A stretch of 63,592 nucleotides of DNA from Clostridia bacterium (GTDB lineage: Bacteria > Bacillota > Clostridia > TANB77 > CAG-508). The stretch lies in assembly GCA_900753245.1 (NCBI GenBank), contig CAADYJ010000013.1:1-63592 (forward strand). The letters run 5' to 3'. Both the position numbers and the translations under genes were made by a program. The notes beneath the pieces were generated by a model, which worked only from the letters and a program-made list of their open reading frames with translations, had not been told where the DNA came from and made no database searches. Numbering within the stretch: position 1 is the stretch's first letter; every line of letters begins with the position of its first letter. Of this stretch, positions 1,925 to 47,956 are shown one piece after another.

Positions 1925-2140
1925 AATAAACGTCTTTGTTAGTTCAAAAAAGCCCTTATGCTAAATTGCATAAGGACGATATTACTCGCGGTGCCACCTT
2001 AATTACTATAAATATAGTATCTTAAAATGCTTATAACCTAGCATAACTCGGTTTCGTTTTACGAAATGCAATAAAAGTAGATTCCTAAAGTATTTTATCC
2101 TACTTGCACCAACCGTAGGCTCTCTAAGTAAAATTTAAAT
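1925..2140 (-). promoter_or_regulatory. T-box riboswitch leader (Ser specifier UCU) with terminator/antiterminator, controlling serS-engB
   Basis: Minus strand shows an AGAGAG stem I motif, an AGTA box and a specifier loop GAA-UCU-A (about 2079..2081). The T-box sequence AATTAAGGTGGCACCGCGAG lies at about 1981..2005, followed by the terminator hairpin CGTCCTTATGC..GCATAAGGGC plus a T-run (about 1943..1975). Confidence 0.8.
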
Positions 2141-2297
2141 TAGTACTAGTCTTTTATTATAGCTCTTATTAATGTATATAGTTTAACACAGAAATAATAA
2201 AAATACAACAAATTTTGAAAAAAATTAATAAGAACTATTAGAATGTATTAAAAGGAATAAATAGGAAATAATAGGATAGGTAAAAGGAGATAGATAT

Positions 2298-7805: not shown

Positions 7806-7845
7806 AGGACATTTGGGGACGGGTCACTTTTGTCCTTTACATAAA
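7806..7845 (+). repeat. Family A repeat unit (AGGACATTTGGGGACGGGTCACTTTTGTCCTTTACATAAA)
   Basis: About 40-bp unit also present at 34144..34183, inverted at 34218..34256, and at 63480..63519. Always intergenic and located after a terminator. Confidence 0.85.
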
Positions 7846-32933: not shown

Positions 32934-32961
32934 TTGCAAAACTGTAAAAATATGTTATAAT
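32934..32961 (+). promoter_or_regulatory. Strong sigma-A promoter with extended -10 (TTGCAA-16-TGtTATAAT)
   Basis: Read directly from the sequence. It drives the roughly 600-nt untranslated region that precedes 33573. Confidence 0.65.
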
Positions 32962-32967
32962 ACAACT

Positions 32968-33555
32968 GATGGTGCATTATTCTAGTAGCATACATCTGCT
33001 GTGAGGGTGGGGCTAAAAATCCACTAAAGGGCACATCGATGAAGTTTCTTATTTTTGCGCGAAATGCCAGTTTTGTGTGAATGTAGGGAGTAAAGAATTT
33101 AGGGTAATATATAATGGCATATATAGACCCCCTATTTTCGCGGAGGCTTAGAAAAAGTTCTAACGAAGGCTTTTAGAACAACCTTTAAGTAAAACCTATG
33201 TTGAGTGCCAAGACACAAAATACATAGAGTAGCCTGTCTTGAGTGATAATATCGGGATTGTTTAAACATGAAATTATTATTGCAAAAGAGACTAGCAATA
33301 GATTTATAGTATGCAGAAGGAAAACTTCTAGAATGTTTGCTTTAAATTATAAGCAAGGAAATCTGTGGATTAAGGTACGGATTTGAGTGGCGATCTGGTT
33401 TCTACTTGTTACTTTTTAATATAGTAATGAGAAGATATTTTCTTTAAATGGAAACGGCTAAACAGTAATGTTTAGTAGAAAATAGAGAAATTCTTCTAGA
33501 CCTAAACCGTAAAATTTACATAGATTTTTACCATCTAAATATTTTTTTAGAACAA
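32968..33555 (+). ncRNA. Large structured ncRNA, candidate OLE (ornate, large, extremophilic) RNA
   Basis: About 590 nt with no credible ORF and higher GC than its surroundings. Nested long-range helices: 32979..32985/33328..33334, 32988..32993/33309..33314 and 33071..33077/33214..33220. Local hairpin at 33157..33179. Immediately upstream of an OapA-like 4-TM gene. Confidence 0.55.
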
Positions 33556-33572: not shown

Positions 33573-34127
33573 ATGGCAAATAAGAAAAAAAATAAAAAAG
33601 ATGATTCGGAACTGAGATGGTTTATAATAGTAGTTATAATCACTTTTATTTTATCTGTAATTTTTTCATATATCTGCACAAATGCAATATCTAGTTTAGA
33701 GTTATTTCCTGCATTGATAATTTTGATATTAACAATATTTATAGGAATAGTGTTTGATATAATAGGAGTTGCAGTTACAGTTGCAAAAGAAGAAGAACTT
33801 CATGCTAAAGCTAGCAAAAAAATAAAAGGTGCGAAAACATCAATAAAACTTATAAGGAATTCATCTAAGGTCTCTAATATTTGTGCAGACGTAATAGGAG
33901 ATATATGTGGAGTAATAAGTGGTTCTATAGCAGCGCTTATTACAATAAAAATAACAGAGAAATATAATTTAAACTTTGATTTACAATTCATTATCAGTGC
34001 GATAGTTGCTTCACTTACAGTAGGTGGGAAAGCTTTAGGAAAAGGCATAGCAAAAAGGAATTCAACAAAAATTGTACATATGGTAGGATTAGTACTTGGA
34101 AAGTTTAATTTTAAAGAAAGAGCCTAA
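33573..34127 (+). CDS. oapA: OLE-associated membrane protein OapA-like (4 TM, DxxxD motif)
   Basis: 184 aa with a basic N-terminus, four TM helices and a conserved-looking ADVIGDICG (D106/D110) motif. Positioned directly 3' of the large ncRNA. Confidence 0.55.
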   Translation: MANKKKNKKDDSELRWFIIVVIITFILSVIFSYICTNAISSLELFPALIILILTIFIGIVFDIIGVAVTVAKEEELHAKASKKIKGAKTSIKLIRNSSKVSNICADVIGDICGVISGSIAALITIKITEKYNLNFDLQFIISAIVASLTVGGKALGKGIAKRNSTKIVHMVGLVLGKFNFKERA

Positions 34128-34143
34128 CAGCTCTTTTTTTTGT

Positions 34144-34256
34144 AGGACATTTGGGGACGGGTCAATTTTGCCCTTTACATAAAGTGTAAAATTAAACAAA
34201 AACATATCAATTTAAAATTTTGTAAAGGACAAAATTGACCCGTCCCCAAATGTCCT
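34144..34256. repeat. Inverted pair of family A units flanking a 34-nt AT-rich core (MITE-like, about 113 bp)
   Basis: The left unit AGGACATTTGGGGACGGGTCAATTTTGCCCTTTACA and the right unit TGTAAAGGACAAAATTGACCCGTCCCCAAATGTCCT are reverse complements with one mismatch. Confidence 0.85.
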
Positions 34257-34395
34257 TGGATAATAAAAAACAAAACAAAAATTTGCAAAATTTTAAATGT
34301 TCGCTTGTTTTTTGCATAGCAATGTTATATAGTATGGAACATAGAGAATGAGAATAAGCAGATGTGGTTTGCCTCCATAAAGGAGGTGAGGCGTA

Positions 34396-34515
34396 TGATA
34401 GAAACAGAATTACTAAGTATTATATACATATTGTTTTATGGATTACTAGGGATGACTATCATTACCTTTGCCTTAGTTATAGCGTTAGCAATAATTTTGA
34501 GCAAAAACAAATAAG
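34396..34515 (+). CDS. 39-aa hydrophobic peptide, type I toxin-like
   Basis: AAGGAGGTGA RBS. My translation: MIETELLSIIYILFYGLLGMTIITFALVIALAIILSKNK (single TM, basic tail). The SD can pair with the upstream CCTCC (34372..34388). Confidence 0.5.
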
Positions 34516-34519
34516 CCAA

Positions 34520-34603
34520 TAAAAAAACACATCTGTTCACTTGGCGGTGTAGATGTGTTAAATTTTACACTGGCAAACCACATTTGTGGTTTCTAATTTT
34601 CTA
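34520..34603 (-). ncRNA. Candidate convergent small RNA (about 80 nt), possible antitoxin or regulator
   Basis: On the minus strand a consensus promoter (34610..34638) is followed by the AAACCACAAATGTGGTTT hairpin. Then comes the terminator AACACATCT..AGATGTGTT plus TTTTTTT, a T-run found only on the minus strand. It ends about 5 nt from the stop of the peptide ORF. Confidence 0.45.
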
Positions 34604-34609
34604 CATTTA

Positions 34610-34638
34610 TTATATAATTTTTATAAAAGATTGTCAAT
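34610..34638 (-). promoter_or_regulatory. Consensus sigma-A promoter on the minus strand (TTGACA-17-TATAAT)
   Basis: Minus strand reads GTTATTGACAATCTTTTATAAAAATTATATAATAAATG. It points away from ruvA and toward the small ORF. Confidence 0.55.
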
Positions 34639-34654
34639 AACAAAGGAGAGAATT

Positions 34655-35248
34655 ATGTACGCATATATAAAAGGAAGTTTAGAAGTAAAAACAAGAGGTT
34701 ATATTGTAATAGATGTAAATGGAATAGGTTATAAAATATTTATGTCAGAAACAGCAATAGCAGAGCTAGGAGAAATAGGACAAGTAGTAAAAGTACATAC
34801 ATATTTAAAAGTTAAAGAAGATGAAATGAGCTTATACGGATTTAATACAAATGAAGAACTTCGCATGTTTGAACTATTGTTATCTGTAAGTGGAATAGGT
34901 GCAAAATCAGCAATAAATATATTATCTAATATTACTCCATCAAGTTTTGCATTAGCTGTAATTACAAATGATGTTGCTAAAATAAAGGCACTTCCAGGAA
35001 TTGGTCCAAAAGGAGCGCAAAGAATAATATTAGAACTAAAAGATAAATTAAATAAAGAGCAAGATATAGAAGAAGTAGAAAAGAAAGCAGAAAAAGTAAT
35101 AGATACACAAAAATATAATGAAGCAATTTCAGCACTTCAAGTATTAGGATACAGTAAAAAAGAAATAGAAAAAGCACTTCAAGGAATAAATGAAGAATTA
35201 ACAGTAGAGGAAATAATAAAATTAGGATTAAAAAATTTAGCAAGATAA
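34655..35248 (+). CDS. ruvA: Holliday junction DNA helicase subunit RuvA
   Basis: MYAYIKGSLE.. start after AAAGGAGAG, HhH motifs (GIGAKSA, GIGPKGAQRI) and C-terminal domain III. The ORF-track GTG 34586 extension is discounted. Confidence 0.9.
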   Translation: MYAYIKGSLEVKTRGYIVIDVNGIGYKIFMSETAIAELGEIGQVVKVHTYLKVKEDEMSLYGFNTNEELRMFELLLSVSGIGAKSAINILSNITPSSFALAVITNDVAKIKALPGIGPKGAQRIILELKDKLNKEQDIEEVEKKAEKVIDTQKYNEAISALQVLGYSKKEIEKALQGINEELTVEEIIKLGLKNLAR

Positions 35249-35335: not shown

Positions 35336-36580
35336 ATGACAGATTTTAGTAAGCCATTGGCGTACAGAATGAGACCTAAAAATTTAGAAGAATATGTTGG
35401 TCAAAAACATATTTTAGGTCAAGATAAAATTTTATATCGTACAATAAAAGCAGATAGATTATCTAGTATTATTTTATGGGGGCCTCCAGGGTGTGGAAAG
35501 ACATCATTAGCAAGGGTAATAAGCGAAACTACAAAATATAAATTTACAAGAATAAATGCTGTAACAGCAGGAGTAGGAGATATTAAAAATGCAATTACAG
35601 AAGCTAGTAATTTACTTTTAAATCCTACAGGAAAATGTATATTGTTTATAGATGAAATTCATCGCTTTAATAAATTACAACAAGATGCACTTTTACCATA
35701 TGTAGAAAATGGAACAGTAATTTTAATTGGAGCAACTACAGAAAATCCTTATTTTGAGGTAAACAAAGCTTTAATATCTCGTTCTATGGTCGTAAAATTA
35801 GAACCTTTAACAATAGAAAATATATATACAGTATTAAAAAGAGCATTAATAGAACCAGAAGGGCTAGGAAGTTATAAAATAAAAATAGAAGATGAAACAT
35901 TAAGGAAAATTGCTGAGGTTGCAAATGGAGATGTACGTACAGCTTTAAATGGTTTAGAAGTAGCAGTCCTTACTACGAAAGTAAATGGAGAGGGTGTTAT
36001 TGAAATTACACCTGAAATAGCGGCAGATAGTGTACAAAACAGAAAAGCAATTTTTGATAAAAATGGAGATAGCCATTATGACAATATCAGTGCATTTATA
36101 AAATCAATGAGAGGTTCAGATCCAGATGCTGCGGTATTTTATTTAGCAAGAGCTATAAATGGTGGTGAAGACCCTATGTTTTTAGCAAGAAGAATTGTTA
36201 TATGTGCATCTGAAGATGTAGGACTCGCAAATCCAAATGCGCTAGTGGTTGCAAATTCTGCAATGCAAGCAGTTCATATGGTAGGAATGCCAGAAGCAAG
36301 AATAATTTTATCTGAAGCGGCTTTATATGTTGCATTATCACCGAAATCAAATTGTTCCTACAATGCAATAAATAAGGCATTAGAAGATGTAAAAAATAAA
36401 GATACAGGTGATGTTCCTATGCATATAAGAAATGCACCTGCGGAGGGAATGGAACAATTGGGTTATCATGAAGGTTATAAATACCCACATGATTACCCAG
36501 GTCATGTAGTAGAACAACAATACTTGCCAGATAAAATGTTAGGAACAAAATATTATATAAAAGATGACACAATTGAATAA
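35336..36580 (+). CDS. rarA: Replication-associated recombination protein A (RarA/MgsA AAA+ ATPase)
   Basis: 414 aa: ..MRPKNLEEYVGQKHILG.., Walker A GPPGCGKTS, Walker B FIDEIHRFN, and a MgsA C-terminal domain. Confidence 0.9.
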   Translation: MTDFSKPLAYRMRPKNLEEYVGQKHILGQDKILYRTIKADRLSSIILWGPPGCGKTSLARVISETTKYKFTRINAVTAGVGDIKNAITEASNLLLNPTGKCILFIDEIHRFNKLQQDALLPYVENGTVILIGATTENPYFEVNKALISRSMVVKLEPLTIENIYTVLKRALIEPEGLGSYKIKIEDETLRKIAEVANGDVRTALNGLEVAVLTTKVNGEGVIEITPEIAADSVQNRKAIFDKNGDSHYDNISAFIKSMRGSDPDAAVFYLARAINGGEDPMFLARRIVICASEDVGLANPNALVVANSAMQAVHMVGMPEARIILSEAALYVALSPKSNCSYNAINKALEDVKNKDTGDVPMHIRNAPAEGMEQLGYHEGYKYPHDYPGHVVEQQYLPDKMLGTKYYIKDDTIE

Positions 36581-47879: not shown

Positions 47880-47956
47880 TGGTAGCGAAGATGTGATTCG
47901 AACACATGACCTGCCGGGTATGAACCGGATGCTCTAGCCAACTGAGCTACTTCGCC
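47880..47956 (-). tRNA. tRNA-Met (anticodon CAU; elongator-like, although an Ile2/lysidine tRNA cannot be excluded)
   Basis: Minus strand: GGCGAAG-TA-GCTC..GAGC-A-TCCGG-TTCATAC-CCGGC-AGGTC-ATGTG-TTCGAAT-CACAT-CTTCGCT-ACCA. Cloverleaf with an encoded CCA. The listed ORF 47762..48007 is its spurious translation. Confidence 0.85.

Follow-up and report, generated by a model that had tools for sequence, protein, structure and literature searches.

In this study, we analyzed a window of 63,592 nucleotides (nt) from a Clostridia bacterium (NCBI GenBank assembly GCA_900753245.1, contig CAADYJ010000013.1, forward strand), and focused on a cassette of about 300 bases lying directly upstream of the gene ruvA. 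The cassette carries an open reading frame (ORF) for a 39-amino-acid (aa) hydrophobic peptide on the plus strand and a predicted small RNA (sRNA) gene on the minus strand. It is probably a chromosomal type I toxin-antitoxin-like module, in which the effect of the sRNA and the toxicity of the peptide are predicted, and it belongs to an unannotated family of the RNA-controlled toxin-antitoxin kind, with the peptide as candidate toxin and the sRNA as candidate antitoxin. A first-pass annotation made from the letters of the window had proposed such a module, in which the toxin mRNA is folded and inert and a convergent sRNA overlaps its 3' part, and this reading is supported by both the architecture of the cassette and the comparison with its relatives. 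Every element listed at that time was found in the sequence; the elements were right, while most of their coordinates were 1 nt too high and are given here in corrected form (Table 1).

In AT-rich DNA, chance could account for a perfect promoter or for a 13-mer repeat taken singly. The cassette as a whole is not a chance arrangement, because every element is conserved in about 140 distinct homologous cassettes, in which both promoters, the leader, the ORF, the minus-strand terminator and a 3' block are all kept. These elements, with their conservation and covariation, were observed directly. A word-indexed search of a protein collection gave 36 unannotated homologues of the peptide, a profile search of 1.84 billion proteins gave 196 cluster representatives, and 213 loci in a collection of species-representative genomes encode a relative; the query for peptide homology was a 50-aa in-frame extension, whose extra residues are translated leader. 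The leader 18-mer CAGATGTGGTTTGCCTCC occurs exactly in at least 119 genome stretches. The family is present in about 200 species-level genomes, and among the titles listed almost all are metagenome-assembled genomes (MAGs) of uncultured Clostridia, from human, mouse, rabbit or ruminant gut or rumen samples. No member of the peptide family was found in viral contigs, the leader pattern was found in one viral contig only (L140, described below), and blastn of the cassette against phage and plasmid collections gave no match. A full-text literature search on the peptide motifs found no paper.

The 39-aa ORF proposed earlier was confirmed together with its perfect ribosome-binding site (RBS). The N-terminus of the peptide is acidic and its C-terminal SKNK basic, with one long helix and a hydrophobic core of 30 residues; AlphaFold2 modelled residues 2-38 as a single helix (predicted local distance difference test score, pLDDT, 96). 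Entropy at the three codon positions of the ORF was 0.84, 0.41 and 0.78, which is a hydrophobic coding pattern. Within the family the start is invariant, Glu3 is near-invariant and a TII core is kept, and proline is absent from the window peptide and from all but two of the 29 aligned members. The window peptide did not match Hol_Tox (PF16935) at E values up to 1, nor did four other family members at E values up to 10. In the database entries, the translated stretch before Met12 of the extended frame corresponds to the conserved leader and is not coding. The upstream in-frame ATG at 34362 was considered as the start and rejected, since the frame is broken in homologues, no Shine-Dalgarno sequence (SD) precedes it and Met12 is invariant.

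Transcription of the ORF is predicted from a plus-strand promoter. Among 89 aligned cassettes its hexamers are kept as TTGTTT, TAGACA or TTGATT and as TATAGT, TATAAT or TATACT, separated by a spacer that is variable in sequence and 17 nt long in 77 of them, and the mean consensus score was 8.7/12. On the minus strand, the perfect TTGACA-17-TATAAT promoter noticed before was recovered firing toward the ORF; it scores 12/12, and no other perfect match occurred in the 2 kb scanned. This antisense promoter is present in 138/139 unique full-length cassettes (mean score 11.5/12), in the forms TTGAC[AT] or TTTACA, a 16-18 nt spacer, and TATAAT or TAAAAT, with entropies of 0.30 for the -35, 0.46 for the -10 and 1.34 for the spacer. 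In 111/112 comparisons it outscored the best promoter-like site at the plus-strand end of the cassette, the plus-strand scan being partly cut at the -35. Both promoters appear to be working ones, because their hexamers are conserved around variable spacers of fixed length.

No part of the cassette is more strongly conserved than the leader between the toxin promoter and the ORF (entropy 0.29, versus 0.68 for the ORF). The pairing of the SD with a CCTCC located 5 nt upstream, which the first-pass annotation had pointed out, was confirmed as GCCTCC-ATAAA-GGAGGT and covaries in homologues, as CTTCC/GGAAG in one locus (L006) and CCACC/GGTGG in three others (L009, L026 and L062). Folding of the plus-strand RNA 34338-34603 (266 nt), a check that had been suggested, gave -80 kcal/mol and z = -6.0 versus shuffles; in this fold the SD is sequestered and a 5'-3' helix stacks onto the anti-SD hairpin.

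Further features lie in or next to the leader. The motif TGTTCGC lies directly 5' of the toxin -35 (34298-34304) and is kept in many cassettes of unrelated contexts, and another subgroup has CTAGACAAA in its place (alignment A3, columns 19-26); it could be an operator or an UP-like element. A LexA box at this motif was rejected, as only a half-site of GAAC-N4-GTTC is present. In three cassettes (L005 294-380, L105 and L117), GGAAATGAGAAT and AAGCAGATG of the leader are separated by an insert of about 65 nt (alignment A3, columns 1-92), which holds a hairpin of its own, ATAACGCT...AGCGTTAT.

The predicted sRNA would start about 7 nt after the -10, near 34602, and its U-run, at about 34519-34523, would end it 5-9 nt before it reaches the ORF stop codon; it would be fully complementary to the 3' untranslated region (UTR) of the toxin mRNA with no overlap with the ORF. 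A minus-strand RNA of 89 nt is predicted to form two hairpins (z = -4.4). The hairpin and the T-run present only on the minus strand, previously proposed to end an RNA of about 80 nt, are there in the window sequence, and the RNA predicted from them is about 82 nt. The A7 tract serves as a U-run on the minus strand only, and the plus-strand stem is followed by the poor tail AAATTTTACA. Among the unique cassettes, the minus-strand U-run (upstream A-run) is found in 128/128 and a plus-strand T-run in 83/128. The terminator stem shows covarying pairs, such as A-U replaced by G-C in 4 sequences, and the apical loop and linker are the most variable part of the cassette and differ between tandem copies.

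The complementarity of the leader and the 3' end, seen earlier as a 13-mer and located here as GATGTGGTTTGCC (34361-34373) with GGCAAACCACATT (34572-34584), proved to be part of a 32-nt inverted repeat, 34342-34373 with 34572-34603, that is 78% complementary; a second complementarity, of CAGATGTGGTTT (34359-34370) with 34524-34535, was also found as proposed. The 3' block (entropy 0.36) holds a local hairpin at 34575-34592 and is complementary to the 5' domain of the sRNA. In the 89 sequences of alignment A3, the 5'-3' helix, the anti-SD helix and the hairpin were paired in 95.5% of cells, compared with 41-53% when the partners were slid by 1-3 columns. Double-sided changes occurred in 12 pairs versus 4.1 ± 1.4 in shuffles, and 0/500 shuffles reached 12. 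Compensatory changes between leader and 3' block include ATAGGAAA/TTTCCTAT versus ATAGAAAA/TTTTCTA, with G-C replaced by A-U in 12-18 sequences, and the one-base leader deletion GUGGUUGCC is matched in the 3' block as GGCAACCAC at 4/4 loci (L009, L010, L013 and L014; UU with AA). The non-Watson-Crick cells of the inner helix comprise 238 plus-strand G.U and 1 of the minus-strand equivalent (A.C). Because these wobbles fit the plus strand, the toxin transcript must include the 3' block. In the minimum free energy fold of the full-length RNA, the long-range helix has at least 20 pairs in 134/143 unique cassettes and at least 10 in all of them.

Two further points concern this repeat. Sequence mimicry, in which the sRNA 5' end equals the mRNA 5' end with no pairing, was considered as its origin and rejected, since the wobble bias indicates plus-strand pairing. 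For the whole transcript, RNAalifold preferred a structure in which the 5' arm of the terminator pairs with the leader CAGAUGUG and the local hairpin also forms; this alternative pairing could act co-transcriptionally as anti-termination and aid read-through of the hairpin by the polymerase.

Both transcripts, the sRNA effect and the toxicity of the peptide are predictions, and together they suggest the following mechanism. The moderate plus-strand promoter would give an mRNA of about 265 nt for the 39-aa single-helix membrane peptide, reading past the hairpin downstream of the ORF as far as about 34603. The first 32 nt or so of this mRNA would pair with the last 32 nt or so and close the molecule, and the CCUCC 5 nt upstream would hold the SD in a 6-bp hairpin, so that little peptide would be made. 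The near-consensus convergent promoter would give an antisense RNA of about 82 nt covering the toxin 3' UTR. When bound there, it would strip the 3' block off the leader, and the freed leader UUG would bring the 6-bp anti-SD helix up to 8 bp, shutting translation further; the long RNA duplex would probably lead to RNase III decay of the mRNA. With less sRNA present, the mRNA, closed and stable, would be translated at a low rate, and the peptide would enter the membrane and be harmful. The folding model is consistent with this switch. In the free full-length mRNA, the leader UUG lies in the long-range helix, the anti-SD helix has 6 bp and the unpaired probability of the SD is 0.107 for the window (family median 0.14). 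With the 3' UTR masked as a mimic of bound sRNA, the anti-SD helix has 8 bp (UUGCCUCC/GGAGGUGA) and this probability is 0.003 (median 0.005), lower than in the free mRNA in 126/138 cassettes.

The genomic behaviour of the family was also examined. Paralogous copies, which the first-pass annotation had suggested looking for, are abundant, and the family is multicopy, with tandem arrays and unrelated contexts. Tandem arrays of 2-3 copies are common (L180, L027/L173, L195, L181, L174 and L130), and several MAGs have two or three cassettes on separate contigs. In the three-copy array of L180, the promoters, leader and 3' block are near-identical and each copy has its own terminator loop and linker, which are plausibly the specificity determinant of the sRNA. 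Orphan sRNA genes stand beside full cassettes, one of them with its own promoter and a different terminator hairpin (L132 718-843). Two copies keep the sRNA with a dead ORF, by a frameshift in L060 and a stop at codon 5 in L041; only these two are clearly dead, several other candidates being GTG starts or SD variants. Genes downstream of the cassettes face either way (20 minus, 15 plus). In one lineage the cassette lies upstream of rlmI-like methyltransferase, rluD, secG and rnr genes, with transposases and group II intron reverse transcriptases on the variable upstream side.

Table 1. Coordinates of the cassette elements and of the flanking features in the window.
Feature	Position	Strand	Basis or details
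Terminator-like hairpin after oapA	34113-34140	+	inverted-repeat search
Toxin-mRNA promoter	34305..34333	+	-35 TTGTTT 34305-34310, 17-nt spacer, -10 TATAGT 34328-34333
Predicted toxin-mRNA start	near 34340	+	promoter position
5' leader of toxin mRNA	34340..34394	+	5' helix arm 34342-34373, anti-SD, loop, SD
Anti-SD GCCTCC, loop ATAAA, SD GGAGGT	34371-34376 (anti-SD); 34382-34387 (SD)	+	sequence
RBS AAGGAGGTGA	34380-34389	+	sequence
ORF of the 39-aa hydrophobic peptide MIETELLSIIYILFYGLLGMTIITFALVIALAIILSKNK	34395..34514 (including stop)	+	ORF translation
Intrinsic terminator of sRNA	34521..34566	-	stem arms 34526-34534 / 34551-34559, A7 34521-34527
Predicted antisense sRNA (antitoxin candidate), about 82 nt	34519..34602	-	predicted from promoter and terminator
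3' block of toxin mRNA GGCAAACCACATTTGTGGTTTCTAATTTTCTA	34572..34603	+	pairs with leader 34342-34373
Antisense-RNA promoter	34637..34609	-	-35 TTGACA 34637..34632, 17-nt spacer, -10 TATAAT 34614..34609
ruvA	34655..35248	+	Pfam RuvA_N, HHH_5, RuvA_C; context, outside the cassette

The features by which type I systems can be recognized from sequence (PMC6563280, PMC2887945, PMC8594479) are found in the cassette. A generic type I toxin has fewer than 60 aa, is hydrophobic and has one transmembrane helix and a charged C-terminus (PMC6563280, PMC2887945); the peptide of the window has 39 aa, a 30-residue hydrophobic core, a single predicted helix and the C-terminal SKNK. A predicted cis-antisense gene with its own promoter and terminator overlaps the toxin mRNA, at the level of sequence and conservation. 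Type I toxin mRNAs are generally marked by SD sequestration through an anti-SD and/or by long-distance 5'-3' pairing (PMC8594479), and predicted folds and covariation indicate both in the cassette mRNA. As to the growth arrest or killing expected of an overproduced type I peptide, the loss pattern of the cassette and the Hol_Tox peptide found on the same scaffold are the only hints, and they are indirect. In Clostridia, type I systems are known almost only from C. difficile (PMC6563280).

Several observations weigh against this assignment. Searches of Pfam, NCBIfam and PADLOC with the 39-aa peptide and distant relatives gave no match, Rfam has no family at gathering score in 34300-34650 (a permissive scan gave noise), and YhzE-2, a candidate type I peptide, was non-toxic on overproduction (PMC2887945). 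An intact ORF without the sRNA block occurs in about 3 copies (L002, L006 and L083), which is rare. No clear plus-strand terminator follows the 3' block of the cassette, and in the 65% of cassettes with a plus-strand T-run at the first hairpin some mRNAs may stop before the 3' block. The covariation counts come from 89 related sequences and are phylogenetically non-independent; 85/89 of these were gathered via the exact leader 18-mer, by which one side of the inner helix is fixed.

Some of these points would suit an antisense-regulated small membrane protein without toxicity, such as a modulator of a membrane complex, controlled by the same RNA circuitry. The invariant start, near-invariant Glu3 and TII core fit a specific partner, the peptide matches no toxin family, some candidate type I peptides are harmless when overproduced (PMC2887945), and the sRNA is missing from a few copies. 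We nevertheless consider this unlikely, given the multicopy state, the tandem arrays and shifting contexts, the orphan sRNA genes, and the joint loss of toxin and sRNA described below. Expression of the peptide is moreover doubly blocked, by the sequestered SD and the closed mRNA; the antisense promoter outscores the plus-strand promoter-like site in nearly every cassette compared; and the same scaffold carries a Hol_Tox peptide in another locus. Such properties are typical of addictive or toxic cargo, not of a housekeeping small protein.

The first-pass annotation had also raised an antisense-controlled leader governing ruvA, since no separate ruvA promoter was evident. The latter part stands: no plus-strand promoter-like site was found in 34500-34655, and the promoter of the cassette is the only one between the oapA terminator and ruvA. 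A plus-strand ruvA promoter inside the 3' block was tried and rejected, its best -35 candidate scoring 2/6. The ruvA RBS starts 8 nt after the sRNA -35 box, and deletion derivatives in related genomes keep a fusion of the toxin promoter to ruvA. As the primary role of the cassette, with regulation of ruvA or another downstream gene by termination or antisense interference and the ORF as a leader peptide, this reading is highly improbable: most copies have no ruvA beside them, the cassette is directly upstream of ruvA in only 9/80 RuvA loci fetched, relatives with RuvA 94-98% identical and the same oapA-ruvA-mgsA order have no ORF/sRNA core, the downstream genes elsewhere are unrelated and lie in both orientations, and tandem arrays make no sense for a leader. 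It is just as hard to believe in a miniature mobile element with the 32-nt inverted repeat as transposase terminal repeats and the ORF and promoters incidental, for, despite the repeat at both ends, the many copies per genome at variable insertion sites and the transposases and group II intron reverse transcriptases near some loci, the conserved unit exceeds the repeat and takes in both promoters, the repeat mismatches in the inner helix are biased to plus-strand G.U, a bias that DNA-level recognition would not give, and the codon periodicity and SD/anti-SD covariation indicate selection on translation control.

With the cassette read as a toxin-antitoxin-like module, transcription of ruvA is a by-product of its location, not its function. 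In the window genome, ruvA transcription probably starts at the toxin promoter and reads through the cassette, because there is no other plus-strand promoter and the deletion derivatives fuse this promoter to ruvA. Three of the relatives with RuvA 94-98% identical are such derivatives (L223 2205-2516, L225 2250-2516 and L226 640-806; alignment A4); in them the ruvA RBS directly follows the toxin promoter with the first 35-45 nt of its leader. The ORF, terminator, 3' block and sRNA -10 were lost together, with at least two different junctions; L223 and L226 lack the cassette core entirely and L225 retains a 70-nt remnant. Toxin and sRNA were deleted jointly in at least two independent events. 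A toxin promoter seems to have been domesticated here to serve a DNA-repair gene, and the derivatives would be natural cases in which the core of a toxin cassette was lost and its promoter retained.

Other features of the window were recorded as well. Upstream of the cassette lie a full-length OLE (ornate large extremophilic) RNA (32953-33550, plus strand; Rfam RF01071, 319 bits) and an ORF for a 184-aa membrane protein in the oapA position (33573-34127, plus strand). Downstream, ruvA is followed by an MgsA/RarA-type AAA+ ATPase (35336-36580, plus strand; Pfam MgsA_C, AAA_assoc_2) instead of ruvB. The order OLE-oapA-ruvA-mgsA is kept in relatives, and ruvA-mgsA was seen in 79/80 RuvA loci fetched, the exception being a 1.6-kb contig that ends just after ruvA. 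Between locus L001 and the window, the OLE region is only 78% identical and RuvA 98%. The oapA terminator and the cassette are separated by a near-perfect palindrome of 113 bp (34144-34256), whose 39-nt arms are 95% complementary. It is present in L223 and L224 and absent in L221, and its arm (AGGACATTTGGGGACGGGTCA..) recurs singly after terminators at 7807-7832 and 63481-63506, so it is a small repeated, perhaps mobile, element. Weak Rfam matches to miRNA precursors at the palindrome were discarded as noise from the long hairpin. The whole-window Rfam scan further found a T-box leader (RF00230, 99.8 bits; 1969-2169, minus strand) and a tRNA gene (47883-47956, minus strand).

The RNA scaffold was also found with other peptides. 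In L140 (12660-12950, minus strand), on the predicted viral contig IMGVR_UViG_3300012155_000004, the 18-nt leader core is identical and the peptide has 29 aa and matches Pfam Hol_Tox (24.7 bits versus a cut-off of 23.3). The layout is that of the window cassette: an anti-SD hairpin, an A-run ahead of a second hairpin, the mRNA 5' end repeated in inverted form, and TTGACA-17-TATAAT on the opposite strand. The RNA closes 5' to 3' with z = -9.0. Two adjoining ORFs of this contig match PHROGs families of unknown function. A family of 33-34-aa peptides ending in IMWTNKE/Q uses the scaffold in L026 (4617-4949, minus strand), L062 (6856-7197, minus strand) and L073 (3448-3787, plus strand), where the cassettes have a longer leader insert and CCACC/GGUGG as anti-SD/SD, and L037 (1790-2069, minus strand) carries a 50-aa hydrophobic peptide; neither this family nor the 50-aa peptide had a Pfam match. 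At least three peptides thus occur on one RNA chassis: the 39-aa family, the 33-aa '..IMWTNKE' family and the Hol_Tox peptide. The parts of the chassis (toxin promoter, leader, anti-SD, sRNA terminator, 3' block and strong antisense promoter) are arranged quasi-palindromically.

These cases tentatively raise the possibility that the conserved unit is the RNA chassis and not the peptide. Such a chassis might be swapped among unrelated hydrophobic peptides and spread and duplicate in gut Clostridia genomes, with the loop and linker as the address of the sRNA and the promoter of core-deleted copies domesticated for housekeeping genes. If so, the terminator loop and linker would keep paralogous sRNAs cognate. 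Independently of this possibility, the family has precise boundaries and adds about 140 natural variants, which amount to a mutational scan of an RNA switch. The cassette could help in the annotation of small genes in gut MAGs, and could serve Clostridia as a compact antisense-controlled expression switch or a counter-selection marker.

Among the known systems, the first-pass annotation had likened the cassette to hok/Sok, TxpA/RatA and BsrG/SR4. With hok/Sok of plasmid R1 only the fold-back principle is shared, that is, an mRNA kept inert by 5'-3' fold-back and SD sequestration (PMC8594479); hok/Sok is Gram-negative, Sok overlaps the 5' leader and the mok frame, activation is by 3' processing and there is no sequence relationship. 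Like par (Fst/RNAI-RNAII of E. faecalis pAD1) and SprA1/SprA1as, the cassette has predicted convergent RNAs with the antisense over the 3' UTR only (PMC8594479). Further likenesses to par are a hairpin between the genes, plausibly bidirectional in about 65% of cassette copies, an SD in an intramolecular 5' stem-loop (PMC8309996), and a short direct repeat, leader GTGGTTTGCCTCC versus 3' GTGGTTTCTCC, by which the sRNA 5' end is partly complementary to the leader. The main repeat of the cassette is, however, inverted and joins the mRNA 5' and 3' ends, whereas par has direct repeats and RNA I/RNA II pairing at the start codon; possible trans pairing of the sRNA with the leader in the window amounts to only 7-8 bp upstream of the SD. 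The APxxxG motif in the transmembrane segment of the Fst/Ldr superfamily (PMC8309996) is absent from the consensus of our family, and the window peptide has no proline. Hol_Tox (PF16935, putative holin-like toxins; the profile of the TxpA/BsrG and BsrH/BsrE toxin families) is linked to the cassette through the RNA scaffold of L140, not through the peptide. By peptide and RNA sequence the cassette belongs to none of these known families.

The best analogue appears to be bsrG/SR4 of the B. subtilis SPbeta prophage (TxpA/BsrG group), and the predicted working of the cassette resembles it most. The two differ in several respects. No similarity of peptide (Hol_Tox/Pfam) or RNA (Rfam) is detectable; the sRNA of the cassette, at about 82 nt, does not overlap the ORF; the ORF and the 3' strand of the closing helix are separated by its terminator, with no separate toxin terminator visible; and the carriers are uncultured gut or rumen Clostridia, with the peptide family not found in viral contigs. 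The likenesses concern the toxin and the RNA control. BsrG has 38 aa and is hydrophobic with a basic C-terminus, a convergent antisense RNA pairs with the 3' part of the toxin mRNA, and a long 5'-3' helix closes this mRNA, which in bsrG is helix P1 of nt 1-35 with nt 232-262 (PMC3834814). Binding of SR4 frees the bsrG 5' strand, the SD helix lengthens from 4 to 8 bp, and RNase III degrades the duplex (PMC3834814). The lengthening to 8 bp was measured from 4 bp in bsrG and modelled from 6 bp in the cassette, where the SD accessibility drops about 30-fold with the 3' UTR masked, in parallel to bsrG/SR4. The RNA logic of the family can be compared directly with that of bsrG/SR4, the sole well-probed case.

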